From the NCBI GenBank assembly GCA_016205145.1, contig JACQJH010000001.1, forward strand, positions 60,001-92,000: a stretch of 32,000 bases of DNA, read 5' to 3'. The stretch comes from Candidatus Iainarchaeum sp. (GTDB lineage Archaea > Iainarchaeota > Iainarchaeia > Iainarchaeales > JACQJH01). Below are positions 1,196-14,246 of the stretch, piece after piece. Both the position numbers and the translations under genes were made by a program. How positions within the stretch are numbered: position 1 is the stretch's first letter; every line of letters starts with the position of its first letter. The notes beneath the pieces were generated by a model. It was not told where the DNA came from. It ran no database searches and saw only the letters and a program-made list of their open reading frames with translations.

Positions 1196-3319
1196 TCACG
1201 CCTGCCCCAGCTGCTTTTTGACCGCCAGCGCGGTCTTTTCCCCGATTATGCGCGACAAATCTTTCACGTCGATGTTTTTCATGTCCGCAATGCCTTTCAC
1301 ATTGGCGCGGAACAGCTTTCTTGCGCGAATCCTGCCTATGCCCCTGAATTCCGTCAAAACAATCAGCTCTTCCTTCACGCCGTGCACTATCCTCTTTCTA
1401 AGCTTTGCCAGTGGCATGTAGTGCGGCCTTGCCTCCAGCAGCATTGCAAGCTCCAGCATTGAATAGCAGAGCCAGTCGCAGATTTTGGTTTTCGAGTAAA
1501 GCGAGCCCGGATACATGGCATATTTTTTTAACAGCTCTTCCTCGGAAGTTTCCGAAATCCAGTCGTTGAGCAATTGCGCGGAAAGGAATTTTCCAAGCAA
1601 CTGGTTGTCCTCGAACATTTCAACGTCGACATTGACCGGAAGCAGGGCTTTTTCAGCCTGCAGCTGTTCCCATAATTCAGCCTCGTTCCTTTTTCCCACG
1701 CGCGGCAAAGGCATCATTTCAGAACAGCTTGAAACAGTGAAAAGATAGCCTAGTTCTACGGCCTTTCCCGCCTTCAGCGCCTTAATCATGCCGAACGCCG
1801 ACAAGGGGTCCAAGTAAAGTTCCGACACGCGTCTTCCTATGGGCGTGGCGACAAATTTTTTCGCGTCACTTTCCACAAAACCCATTTCCTGCAATTCGAG
1901 GACGATTGACTGGAGTTTTGAGAAAAACACGCGGTTGTTTGAGAACTGCCTGAAATAAAGCGTTTTTGAAAAAAACTCTTCCATCGAAGCCAGATCGAAA
2001 ACGAAGCCTCCGGCGATCAGCGCCAAAAAATGTGCGCGCAGAATCTGTTGAATGCCGAGTTGCGAGTGAACCGGCTCCACGTCGCCTTTCACGAAATTTT
2101 CCAAAAAGTCGTCCGCTTCAATCTCGCTTTTCGCCAGAATCATGGACCTGCCCTCGGAATCGAATTTCGGCCTGCCGGCGCGGCCCGCCATTTGGCGGTA
2201 TTCTCTGACCGGAATCCTTTCCATGGAAAAAGCGCCGTAACGGTAAACCGATGTTATGGCAACCGTGTGCGCCGGCAAATTTAATCCCGCGCTTAAAGTG
2301 GGCGTCGCGCACACGACTTTGACCTCGTTTTTCCTGAACGAATCCTCGACCACTTCGCGCTGTTTCTGCATCAGGCCGGCGTGGTGGAATGCAGCGCCTT
2401 TTCCTATCTGGCCGGCAATCTTCCTGCACTGGTCCGTGGGATTTTCAAGCGCATTCAAGGCGCTTTCGGACCGCTTCTGCAGCACCGCCTTTTCGTTTTC
2501 GCCAAGCATTTTTGCGGAAATCGCGGACAGCTTTTCCGCCAGGCTTTCCGCCCTTTTGCGGGTGTTCGCGAAAACCAGCAGCTGCTTGCCCTTCTTGTGC
2601 AAAGTGTCGAAAGCGATTGTTTCAATCGCGTCATCCGAGCCGGCGACAGGTATTTCCTCAGTGTGTTTTTCCGCCTCGAACCTGCCGTCAACAAAGACGC
2701 CTTCAACCAGCTTTACGGGCCTGAAATCGCTTTCAACGAGCTTTGCTTCAAGCCAGCCCGCCAGCTCCTTCGCATTCGGAATCGTTGCCGACAAGGCCAG
2801 AACCTGCATTTTCGGGTTCACGAACTTGAATTTTGTCATGACGATTTCAAGGGTCGGGCCGCGGTCGGAATCGATTGAATGCACTTCGTCGACGACTAGC
2901 AGGCCCACGGAGTTCAGCCAGCCGGCCTTGTGGCGGAGAAGGGAATCCAATTTTTCATAAGTCGTGAAAACGATGTCATAGTTTTCCAGCCGTTTGCCGC
3001 TCGCATCGAGGTCGCCTGTGGACAAAGCAGCCTTCACTGACAACTGTTTCGAGTATTTTTTCTTGAAATCGTTGTAGTGTTCCGCGGCAAGCGCGCGCAA
3101 AGGACAGGTGTAAACGGCTTTTTTGCGGTTGTTCAGAATCGAGTTGAGGCCAGCCAGCTCGGCTATAATCGTCTTGCCTGAAGCAGTGGGCGAGCTGATG
3201 ACAGTGCTTTCGCTGATCGCGCCTTTTGCGATTGCCTGCGCCTGCATTTCATTGAAGGCTTGAAAGCCGTTCGCTTCGAGGACGATTTTTTGGATGTCGG
3301 ATTCCGGCACTGTGCTCAC
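1196..3319 (-). CDS. hel308: Hel308/Ski2-like DNA helicase
   Basis: 707 aa. Walker A SSPTASGKT, motif II DEVH, motif III SAT, motif VI QMAGRAGRP, and a C-terminal helix-hairpin-helix domain (GIGRIRARKLF). Start codon is GTG at 3319; the exact start is uncertain. Confidence 0.93.
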   Translation of the reverse strand: MSTVPESDIQKIVLEANGFQAFNEMQAQAIAKGAISESTVISSPTASGKTIIAELAGLNSILNNRKKAVYTCPLRALAAEHYNDFKKKYSKQLSVKAALSTGDLDASGKRLENYDIVFTTYEKLDSLLRHKAGWLNSVGLLVVDEVHSIDSDRGPTLEIVMTKFKFVNPKMQVLALSATIPNAKELAGWLEAKLVESDFRPVKLVEGVFVDGRFEAEKHTEEIPVAGSDDAIETIAFDTLHKKGKQLLVFANTRKRAESLAEKLSAISAKMLGENEKAVLQKRSESALNALENPTDQCRKIAGQIGKGAAFHHAGLMQKQREVVEDSFRKNEVKVVCATPTLSAGLNLPAHTVAITSVYRYGAFSMERIPVREYRQMAGRAGRPKFDSEGRSMILAKSEIEADDFLENFVKGDVEPVHSQLGIQQILRAHFLALIAGGFVFDLASMEEFFSKTLYFRQFSNNRVFFSKLQSIVLELQEMGFVESDAKKFVATPIGRRVSELYLDPLSAFGMIKALKAGKAVELGYLFTVSSCSEMMPLPRVGKRNEAELWEQLQAEKALLPVNVDVEMFEDNQLLGKFLSAQLLNDWISETSEEELLKKYAMYPGSLYSKTKICDWLCYSMLELAMLLEARPHYMPLAKLRKRIVHGVKEELIVLTEFRGIGRIRARKLFRANVKGIADMKNIDVKDLSRIIGEKTALAVKKQLGQA

Positions 3320-3329
3320 TCAAAAGATT

Positions 3330-3552
3330 GGCTGGAAAAGTTGAAAAAGCTGCAGGCGGGCTCCACCCATCGGAACCTTAAATATCAAATGCGGGGCGCA
3401 GATGGGTATCGAGCAACGCGAGATGCTCCGGAATCCAAAGATTCCGGGCACGCCGCAAAATCCAGGATTTTGCAAAGTACCCGTCGTCGAACCAGCCGGG
3501 CGAAACCGGCTTTGGGGTGGTGTGGGAGGAAGGCATTGCCTTCCCCCCGAAA
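3330..3552. ncRNA. Candidate structured non-coding RNA, family and strand unresolved
   Basis: No credible ORF; the only frames are R/G/P-rich. A 9-bp helix (3401-3409/3477-3485) encloses three hairpins (3411-3428, 3428-3447, 3456-3472). Further hairpins lie at 3495-3510 and 3524-3547. Weak resemblance to RNase P CR-I (GGGCTCCA 3358-3365) and CR-V (GAAACCGGCTTT 3502-3513). Confidence 0.35.
3486..3511 (+). repeat. Copy 1 of a dispersed 26-nt hairpin motif, GTCGAACCAGCCGGGCGAAACCGGCT
   Basis: Matches the minus-strand sequence at 14156-14181 in 25 of 26 positions. The single difference lies in the loop of the GCCGG/CCGGC hairpin. Confidence 0.9.
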
Positions 3553-3795
3553 TCACGCGTCCTGGTTTTGTGGTGTTTCTTTTATGGTTAGGTAGTTGAA
3601 GGCGCTTTGCATGGCAGCAATTGCCTTTGGCAGGTCTGAAACCTTGAAATAACTGGTTTTCTGCCACCTGTCATCCTTGTCCTTGTAGGACTTGTCAAGC
3701 GAAACCGTCGTGAAGGTTTTGCCTTCTTTTGTTTCGTTTTCCCAGATTGCGACTTGCACGCCTCCCGCCGAAAACTTTTTTACCGGTGCGGACAT
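3553..3795 (-). CDS. Small PC4/YdbC-like putative ssDNA-binding protein
   Basis: 80 aa (MSAPVKKFSAGGVQVAIWENETKEGKTFTTVSLDKSYKDKDDRWQKTSYFKVSDLPKAIAAMQSAFNYL). The pattern resembles prokaryotic PC4-like proteins. A strong Shine-Dalgarno AAGGAGG lies 7 nt upstream of the ATG. The CDS call is solid; the product call is tentative. Confidence 0.6.
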   Translation of the reverse strand: MSAPVKKFSAGGVQVAIWENETKEGKTFTTVSLDKSYKDKDDRWQKTSYFKVSDLPKAIAAMQSAFNYLTIKETPQNQDA

Positions 3796-3850: not shown

Positions 3851-4099
3851 TTGTAAGTGGGAACGAACCTGATGATCCTGTCTTCAAACATTTGCCTCAC
3901 CTTCCATGAATTCAGCGCCGTAGCCGGCGTAAATGCTTTTCTGCCTTTTTTCCCCGAAAATGATTCCAAGCATTTTTCCATCACCTGCAATAGCTTTGTT
4001 TGAGGCGGTTAAAATGCAGGGGCAAGGGGAGTGGATTTCCCGTGAATTGGTTTTCCAATCTCTCCGCTTTTTATGCTCCCAAGCCATAATATGGTAATG

Positions 4100-4320
4100 A
4101 GGTTTTTGCGGAGGCGACCCCGCGGGCGGCCGCAAGAGCAGGGAGGGCAGGGCAGTCCGGAATCTCCTGGTCCGGATGGCGGGCCAAAACTGGTTGAGTT
4201 GCTTCAGTCCAGCGGCAGTCTGGCGGACAGCCGGGATGTTTTGGAGAATCCGCATGGCTTTAAGGCCAAATTTAGGCGATGGTTAGCGCGGTTAAGGCGC
4301 AGGAATGGCGGTTGATTTTT
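4100..4320. ncRNA. Candidate structured non-coding RNA in a GC-rich, ORF-poor spacer, family unresolved
   Basis: A visibly GC-rich stretch whose only ORFs translate to R/G/P-rich nonsense. TATA-like ATAATAT at 4086-4092. Palindromes GCGGCCGC (4126-4133) and TCCGGA x2 (4156-4161, 4171-4176). CAGTCCGG (4153-4160) is complementary to CCGGGATG (4231-4238). Hairpin GCGC/GCGC at 4286-4300, then T5 at 4316-4320. Confidence 0.3.
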
Positions 4321-4324
4321 CCGT

Positions 4325-14131: not shown

Positions 14132-14246
14132 CATGAGTTTTGCATTCATTTCATGAGCCGGTTTCGTCCGGCTGGTTCGACGTTGAGGGTTCTCACTGCT
14201 GTTCGAACCCTCTGCCTGCCTTCATTAGTTTTGCATTCATTTCATG
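14132..14246. repeat. 20-bp perfect direct repeat (AGTTTTGCATTCATTTCATG at 14136-14155 and 14227-14246; 24 bp with 1 mismatch) flanking a ~70-bp hairpin-containing insert
   Basis: Read directly from the sequence. The repeat period is 91 bp. The inner copy encodes the last conserved residues of taw1 (HEMNAKLM), and the outer copy preserves an alternative in-frame tail. Confidence 0.9.
14156..14181 (-). repeat. Copy 2 of the dispersed 26-nt hairpin motif (GTCGAACCAGCCGGACGAAACCGGCT on the minus strand)
   Basis: 25/26 identity to 3486-3511. It lies inside the insert bounded by the 20-bp direct repeats. Confidence 0.9.

Follow-up and report, generated by a model that had tools for sequence, protein, structure and literature searches.

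A modular hairpin repeat, REP-like and probably mobile or recombining, in the spacer upstream of hel308 in an Iainarchaeales genome

The spacer between the 80-aa gene and hel308

The window analysed here, by which we mean the whole stretch of 32,000 nucleotides, corresponds to C1:60001-92000 of a two-contig DPANN archaeal genome of 1.25 Mb that is 97.8% complete. Its spacer 3320-3552 separates two minus-strand genes, an ORF of 80 amino acids on the upstream side and the hel308 helicase gene on the downstream side (Table 1). All gene calls used for the genomic context are crude longest-ORF calls. Homologues of the 80-aa gene are present across the Iainarchaeia, and its close linkage to hel308 is kept in many of them (loci L030-L076).

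The 80-aa protein has no Pfam match, and a profile run among PDB sequences gave nothing meaningful. Its AlphaFold model is confident (pLDDT 87.5) and consists of four strands followed by a long helix. In a Foldseek search the best matches of this model were weak, with Pur-alpha at E 0.086 (probability 0.87) and PC4 homologues lower in the ranking. On these grounds the name PC4-like, given to this gene in the initial annotation, is plausible.

Both ends of the spacer carry features that belong to the neighbour genes. Near the hel308 GTG an A/T-rich box, CTTTTTCAACTTTTC, is judged by its position the probable hel308 promoter. At the other end, a GC hairpin that had been described before as lying at 3524-3547 immediately follows the 80-aa gene stop codon. 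It exists, with its end at 3548. One position in its stem is mismatched (A.C) when read on the plus strand but paired (G.U) when read on the minus strand, and therefore the hairpin fits the minus strand and the 3′ end of the 80-aa gene mRNA. BLAST of the spacer against its own genome found no further copy of this hairpin.

Mechanical ORFs of 115 aa (minus strand) and 111 aa (plus strand) can be drawn through the spacer. Because neither has a Pfam match we rejected a coding reading, in line with the earlier view that the spacer has no credible ORF. The neighbouring gene-free stretch 3880-4324, which had been listed as a second RNA candidate, contains no Rfam match at gathering score and no match to the covariance model R1 described below; a 123-aa ORF in this stretch (3884-4255, minus strand) has no Pfam match.

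Table 1. Features of the hel308 spacer, its neighbour genes and a second repeat copy of the window
Feature	Position	Strand	Description
hel308 helicase gene	1196-3319	-	Pfam: DEAD, Helicase_C, archaeal helicase domain 4; downstream neighbour of the spacer
A/T-rich box CTTTTTCAACTTTTC	3335-3349	-	about 16-30 nt upstream of the hel308 GTG; block conserved in L025
Possible degenerate upstream module	3352-3397	+	imperfect GC hairpin, CGGAAC, TATA-like TTAAATAT (3378-3385)
Long-form class I copy of the modular hairpin repeat	3398-3511	+	5′ GCA, hairpin 1 (four-way junction), linker GUCGAACC, hairpin 2
Hairpin 1	3401-3485	+	outer 9-bp helix 3401-3409/3477-3485 closes three branches; sequence and MFE fold
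Mini-hairpin A	3410-3422	+	branch of hairpin 1
Optional two-hairpin insert B+C	3423-3476	+	about 53 nt; present in long forms, absent from short forms
Hairpin B	3424-3450	+	branch of hairpin 1
Hairpin C	3455-3473	+	branch of hairpin 1
Linker GUCGAACC	3486-3493	+	contains the invariant UCG
Hairpin 2	3494-3511	+	6-bp stem AGCCGG 3494-3499/CCGGCT 3506-3511; loop GCGAAA
Conserved flank TTGGGGTGGTGT	3512-3523	+	adjoins the 3′ end of the element; same flank after a different module in L025
GC hairpin	3524-3548	-	immediately follows the 80-aa gene stop codon; 11 bp including one G.U; minus-strand fold
80-aa gene	3553-3795	-	ORF list; upstream neighbour of the spacer
Short-form class I copy	14152-14218	-	R1 61.2 bits, E 7.5e-10

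Fold of the element in the spacer

The plus strand of the spacer folds with -92.8 kcal/mol (z -3.17), a value reached by none of 200 dinucleotide shuffles; for the minus strand the z value against dinucleotide shuffles is -3.67. The initial annotation had described the spacer as a candidate structured RNA gene, in which a 9-bp helix closes a junction of three hairpins. Three of these helices can be read exactly where they had been placed, namely the outer 9-bp helix, which includes two U.G pairs on the plus strand, the 8-bp hairpin (3428-3435 with 3440-3447) and the third hairpin (3456-3462 with 3466-3472), the last one being lengthened by the pair G3455-C3473. The GCCGG/CCGGC hairpin assigned to 3495-3510 is borne out as well and corresponds to hairpin 2 in Table 1, with a stem of 6 bp. 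A GAGCA/TGCTC pairing (3411-3428) is also readable in the sequence but is unsupported by the paralogous copies introduced below. Instead, these copies support a mini-hairpin at 3410-3422 (C-G, tandem G.A/A.G, G-C, C-G and a triloop) and an extension of the 8-bp hairpin by UGC/GCA (3424-3426 with 3448-3450). When the 13 long-form copies of the genome were folded separately, the outer helix closing three hairpins recurred in 10-11 of them, despite differing stem sequences.

Upstream of the element, the segment 3352-3397 aligns weakly to the consensus of a block that precedes other copies, and we tentatively regard it as a degenerate upstream module.

Comparison with catalogued RNA families

At gathering score no Rfam family matches anywhere in the window. 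A permissive scan of 3200-3700 gave Yfr1 as best match, with 19.6 bits against a threshold of 38 bits (E 0.16), which is chance level; Yfr1, mir-8927, ftsZ-DE and sR28 (E 0.16-2.2) were all taken as chance matches.

Resemblances to RNase P RNA (CR-I, CR-V and a P4-like helix) and to SRP RNA had been seen in the spacer by eye, and apart from these short motifs nothing speaks for reading the spacer as a reduced form of RNase P RNA, as an RNA of the SRP kind or as a member of some other catalogued family. The RNase P model (RF00373, gathering score 84 bits) has no match in the window, and none at E<=10 in 3200-3700; the archaeal SRP model (RF01857, gathering score 96.5 bits) has no match in the spacer. 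The genuine, full-length genes sit elsewhere in the genome, RNase P RNA at C1:598632-598912 (121.7 bits) and SRP RNA at C2:625795-626070 (124.5 bits). Moreover, the supposed CR-V/P4 segment is the 3′ strand of hairpin 2, and the P4-like pairing of 3346-3352 with 3507-3513, although possible on paper, competes with this family-supported hairpin. The spacer thus has in common with the two RNAs only short motif resemblances and a multi-hairpin junction, and their covariance models do not recognise it. Both leads are refuted, and we give practically no credit to any catalogued family here. A false lead is removed from the hel308 spacer, as there is no second RNase P-like or SRP-like RNA in it.

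A family of modular hairpin repeats

BLAST of the spacer against its own genome revealed about 50 partial or whole matches to its core (~3398-3514), arranged in a mosaic pattern. The copies follow one plan which, on the plus strand of the window, consists of a short 5′ motif, hairpin 1, a UCG linker and hairpin 2. The stem of hairpin 1 has 7-12 bp and is very different among copies, yet it is always paired. Hairpin 2 is common to two classes of copies and has a variable 6-bp stem and an NCGAAA loop. Class I copies start with GCA followed by G, often have the hairpin 1 loop GAGC-NNN-GCGA and contain the linker GUCGrACC, while class II copies start with UUACUC and have a 10-bp stem with a random tetraloop and the linker UUGGUUUCGGACC. 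The repeat is defined by its fold rather than by its sequence.

An alignment of 28 short class I copies was used to build the covariance model R1, which has 68 model positions. R1 recognises the window copy with 61.6 bits (E 6e-10) over all 68 positions (3395-3515), reading B+C as a 56-nt insertion. Scanning the genome with R1 gave 65 matches at E<=0.01, and 53 class II copies were identified by conserved flanking anchors. In total the copy number is on the order of 100, and the repeat makes up roughly half a percent of the genome.

In the 28-copy alignment 86.7% of the cells are paired, compared to 68.7% in shuffles, none of 500 of which reached the observed value; in a partner-sliding control at most 48% of the cells are paired. 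Hairpin 2 is paired in 100% of the cells, with changes on both sides in five of its six pairs, and U41, C42 and G43, which form the UCG of the linker, are invariant columns among the 28 copies. These compensatory changes are seen among paralogous copies of a dispersed repeat and not among orthologues. A small pseudoknot between the linker UCG and the hairpin 2 loop is conceivable, and a co-change in class II (UUUCG/CGAAA to UUCCG/CGGAA), found in one subfamily only, supports such a pairing.

The B+C insert occurs in 13 copies, on class I as well as class II backbones, and its place within the fold, in the 3′ strand of hairpin 1, does not change. In the short forms position 3422 is joined directly to ~3477. 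The insert is near-identical in sequence across backbones whose outer stems are unrelated, which argues for shuffling or insertion of modules rather than for slow divergence. Tandem and nested modules are also seen among the copies.

An order-wide survey with R1 detected elements of the same architecture in 20 of 150 other genomes, belonging to 8 families, with up to 8-10 elements per genome in one genus. Those inspected in these genomes combine variable stems with the UCG linker and the CGAAA loop; some of them adjoin tRNAs.

The same locus in relatives

The order of the 80-aa gene followed by hel308 is widespread in Iainarchaeia. In the relatives the spacer between the two genes has 0-115 nt, is unstructured in most of them and is without the element. 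It measures 0 nt in L037, where the genes overlap, 6 nt in L040, 16 nt in L049, 43 nt in L051, 47 nt in L056, 68 nt in L076 and 73 nt in L054. R1 has no match in 15 loci with this gene order.

The closest relative examined is the metagenome contig L025, a single contig whose Hel308 is 88% identical. It keeps the hel308-proximal A/T box, the flank TTTGGGGTGGTG and the GC hairpin after the stop codon; the stem of this hairpin is wholly different yet perfectly paired, and its flanks are the same. In its spacer (L025:215-420) other modules stand between the conserved flanks, among them a degenerate hairpin of class II type with reversed orientation. The flank next to the element thus comes after another module in L025, and the 3′ boundary of the variable cassette therefore coincides precisely with the end of hairpin 2. 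Together with the relatives that lack the element, this indicates an exchangeable cassette, specific to the lineage, instead of a conserved RNA gene. What stands of the structured RNA gene proposed initially is a real structured element with helices kept by compensatory changes; what falls is a discrete, locus-specific RNA gene, for which the absence of the element from the syntenic spacers of relatives is adverse evidence.

Promoter-like sequences upstream of the copies

Many copies are preceded by a GC hairpin and the block CCCCyGAAAcaUUUAAU, after which 5-12 nt follow. This raises the question whether each copy could be an independent small RNA gene under its own promoter, whose short RNA would join a variable 5′ portion to a constant 3′ handle folded as a pseudoknot and would act in trans. 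In favour of this, the block GAAAcaUUUAAU that lies 5-12 nt upstream of many copies is BRE/TATA-like, the window copy has TTAAATAT at 3378-3385, and in the stems of class II G.U modestly exceeds A.C, by 11 to 5, on the strand taken as sense. However, only ~13-17 nt separate the centre of the TATA-like box from hairpin 1. The usual archaeal spacing between TATA box and start is ~26 nt, and the tRNA promoters of this genome show the same ~26 nt, so that transcription would start inside hairpin 1. Many copies also lack the box (a strict pattern matched only 7), copies are not conserved at syntenic sites, and about 100 paralogous genes with different stems would be without known precedent or target. 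Mainly because the box is too close to hairpin 1, we regard a family of small RNA genes as very improbable.

Insertion signature, mobilising enzymes and orientation

The second copy of the window listed in Table 1 is bracketed (window 14132-14246) by a perfect 20-nt direct repeat, CATGAAATGAATGCAAAACT. This direct repeat lies where a 426-aa ORF meets a 98-aa ORF, and the insert together with one copy of the 20-nt repeat looks like a clean insertion sparing both gene ends. In the other 66 of 67 curated copies no flank duplication beyond that of control pairs was found, the longest shared word having a median of 5 nt as in the controls. Terminal inverted repeats were not found either: the 3′ end, ...CCGGCU, does not repeat the 5′ end, GCAG..., in inverted form, and all pairing is internal to the modules.

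We also looked for enzymes that could mobilise the repeat in the 97.8%-complete genome. Y1/HUH transposases (PF01797; RAYT/TnpA) have no match there, while control genomes were matched, and TnpB (PF07282), reverse transcriptase (PF00078) and Cas1 (PF01867), the latter sought because of the 20-nt duplication, are absent as well. Accordingly, a RAYT-mobilised REP and an IS200/IS605-derived or omega RNA element were rejected for want of PF01797 and PF07282, a retro-inserted SINE-like element for want of PF00078, and a casposon-like or Cas1-integrated element for want of PF01867. The genome holds two tyrosine recombinases, and nothing ties them to the repeat. At C1:503000-505500 three tRNA genes are interleaved with repeat copies beside a 404-aa tyrosine recombinase ORF (PF00589, 28.8 bits); this cluster may be an integrated element.

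On contig 2 the orientation of the class I copies changes from 9 minus and 2 plus to 13 plus and 2 minus at the minimum of the cumulative GC skew at 404 kb (Fisher p 0.0009). Genome-wide the association between orientation and skew is weak (p 0.023), contig 1 does not follow it, and the two cdc6 genes (C1:48 kb and C2:523 kb) are away from the skew minima. A replication-strand bias of the copies is thus no more than suggestive.

Polarity toward tRNA genes and other RNA ends

The copies are strongly polar with respect to tRNA genes. In 20 of the 67 curated copies the hairpin-2 end has a tRNA gene nearby, at a distance of up to 20 nt and mostly of 0-3 nt; in none of the 67 does one lie this close to the other end. 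Fifteen of the 20 are arranged tail-to-tail with the 3′ end of the tRNA and five are found directly upstream of a tRNA 5′ end; eight more curated copies adjoin the stop codon of a convergent ORF. Seen from the tRNA genes, a GC hairpin no more than 4 nt away is found at the 3′ end of 27 of 47 and at the 5′ end of 11 of 47, compared to 7.6% of random positions. Three predicted tRNA introns (the long-intron tRNAs are aragorn predictions) hold a copy with the hairpin-2 end toward the exon junction, and in two predicted introns a reverse-complement hairpin 2 begins 0-2 nt after the predicted 5′ splice site. With respect to the protein genes neighbouring the hairpin-2 side, 36 copies are opposed and 31 co-oriented.

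In nine tRNA genes a sense copy, and no TATA-like sequence, is found between the tRNA and any possible promoter, so that these copies must be transcribed as leaders; likewise, the reverse-complement copies at tRNAs must be transcribed as trailers.

These data make it necessary to consider that the copies are selected cis-acting RNA elements which mark or protect RNA ends like a punctuation; in the spacer the copy would separate the 80-aa gene from hel308 as terminator or insulator. The helix would then serve RNase P, tRNase Z or the splicing endonuclease, or it would block exonucleases or read-through. In favour of such a role, the hairpin-2 end adjoins tRNA 5′ ends, 3′ ends and both kinds of intron junction. 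In archaeal bulge-helix-bulge (BHB) introns the intron-internal helix is expected just past the 5′ splice site, and there the two introns mentioned above have the reverse-complement hairpin 2. The constant nucleotides of loop and linker persist across 8 families, and the window copy, just downstream of the 3′ end of a gene, has the majority orientation. On the other hand, the element is missing from the spacer in most relatives that keep the gene pair, 20 of 47 tRNA genes are without such a 3′ hairpin, both orientations occur toward neighbouring protein genes, and in the closest relative, L025, the modules are swapped. We judge a selected role of this kind unlikely as the main explanation, but it is a serious rival, given that unpaired bases are conserved and that the copies adjoin processing sites exactly.

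Because the hairpin-2 end faces sites at which RNA ends are made, a link of the repeat with RNA processing, in place of DNA transposition, has to be considered as well, though we think it improbable. Two versions are conceivable. In the first one, a mobile element would spread through RNA cleavage and ligation sites, by the splicing endonuclease and an RtcB-type ligase, and would later be fixed in DNA. In the second one, the host would have recruited the helix as a punctuation used by archaeal end-processing enzymes. If a link to RNA processing is true, it would connect tRNA processing and genome-wide repeat dynamics in DPANN archaea in a new way.

A mobile or recombining repeat as the favoured explanation

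The explanation we favour, with fair though far from full confidence, is that 3398-3511 represents one copy of a lineage-restricted, modular, REP/BIME-like repeat of Iainarchaeales, which is probably mobile or recombining and may have roles at RNA ends. At the hel308 locus the element would have been inserted, or swapped in as a cassette, between the terminator-like hairpin that follows the 80-aa gene and the promoter of hel308.

The data directly show that the window copy belongs to the family, that the stems covary, that the copies are polar toward tRNA ends, that the syntenic spacers of relatives lack the element and that a 20-nt duplication marks one insertion in the window. We infer that the repeat is mobile, that a factor moves it and that it has an effect on RNA ends. 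Most likely, a trans-acting factor reads the constant unpaired nucleotides, i.e. the linker UCG and the hairpin 2 loop CGAAA, together with the shape of the hairpins on one strand, which could be single-stranded DNA or RNA. This factor would place or keep the hairpin-2 end against structured ends that already exist, such as tRNA termini, tRNA intron junctions and the 3′ ends of genes. As in bacterial REP/BIME or BOX elements and in mitochondrial GC clusters, short hairpin modules appear, disappear, nest and shuffle while the stems stay paired. In the hel308 spacer the copy may protect a 3′ end or insulate the transcript of the 80-aa gene from hel308.

Several observations stand against a mobile repeat. 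No mobilising enzyme was found in the nearly complete genome, and neither terminal inverted repeats nor, in all copies but one, flank duplications are present. The copies are far more diverse than those of a recently active MITE family. The constant unpaired bases and the strict pairing across families would fit selection for a cellular function equally well, and the sense copies at nine tRNA genes are necessarily transcribed as leaders.

Comparison with known repeats

REP, BIME and REPIN sequences are mobilised by RAYT, a Y1 HUH transposase. Like the archaeal repeat they are imperfect palindromes of small size that lie outside genes in high copy number, carry a short conserved motif at the 5′ end and are strand-specific; they show mosaic assembly, often lie at the 3′ ends of genes and can act as stabilisers or terminators of RNA 3′ ends. 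The 5′ motifs of the archaeal copies, which are likewise numerous and intergenic, are GCAG in class I and UUACUC in class II, compared to the REP tetranucleotide GTAG. However, REP stems are conserved, whereas the stems of the archaeal repeat are highly variable among copies. The archaeal repeat further differs by the lack of a RAYT/Y1 gene, by a hairpin followed by a pseudoknot-like hairpin, by the strong polar association with tRNA ends and by its archaeal host.

The pneumococcal BOX and the enterobacterial ERIC/IRU elements share with it modular units in varied combinations, stable stem-loops and a location between genes. BOX modules are conserved in sequence, while the archaeal repeat conserves the fold and a few unpaired bases, and we know of no reported preference of BOX for tRNA ends.

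MITEs, including palindrome-associated elements derived from IS200/IS605, are also small, non-coding, structured and dispersed, and their insertions are visible against empty sites. Unlike them the archaeal repeat has no terminal inverted repeats and no regular target-site duplication, and its genome has no TnpA/TnpB.

Units that merge and shuffle are known from the GC42-family clusters of yeast mitochondria (PMC4478555) and from the repetitive hairpin-forming elements (RHEs) of sponge mitochondria (PMC2800124). Both share with the archaeal repeat the GC-rich hairpin units in a compact genome, the rapid substitution, merger and shuffling, the presence/absence differences among close relatives and the lack of an identified dedicated transposase (PMC4478555, PMC2800124). 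The yeast GC clusters have short putative target duplications (AG), while most archaeal copies have none and one has 20 nt. Furthermore, GC clusters and RHEs reside in organelles and the archaeal repeat on a free archaeal chromosome.

For Iainarchaeia no REP-like repeats were reported in the literature searched. To our knowledge, few have been described for archaea at all, and for DPANN archaea in particular. The repeat deserves attention since it sits exactly at the ends of over half of the tRNA genes, enters tRNA introns and persists across several families of the order without a recognisable transposase. It bears on the spread of small structured DNA in reduced genomes, on the growth of archaeal tRNA introns and flanks, and on the recruitment of such sequences as RNA-end signals. 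For genome annotation it is a warning, because each copy read alone resembles a novel structured RNA gene.

A second repeat family in tRNA introns

Apart from the GC-rich repeat, the predicted tRNA introns contain a second, distinct repeat family. In at least 11 of 19 predicted intron-bearing tRNAs the intron opens with a long, A/T-rich perfect hairpin of the type CCCTTTTTCTTTCTT...AAGAAAGAAAAAG, located 3-7 nt past the 5′ splice site (for example at C1:216965-217125, C1:503031-503236, C2:86516-86744 and C2:336244-336568). The predicted intron of tRNA-His contains four tandem repeats of ~37 nt.
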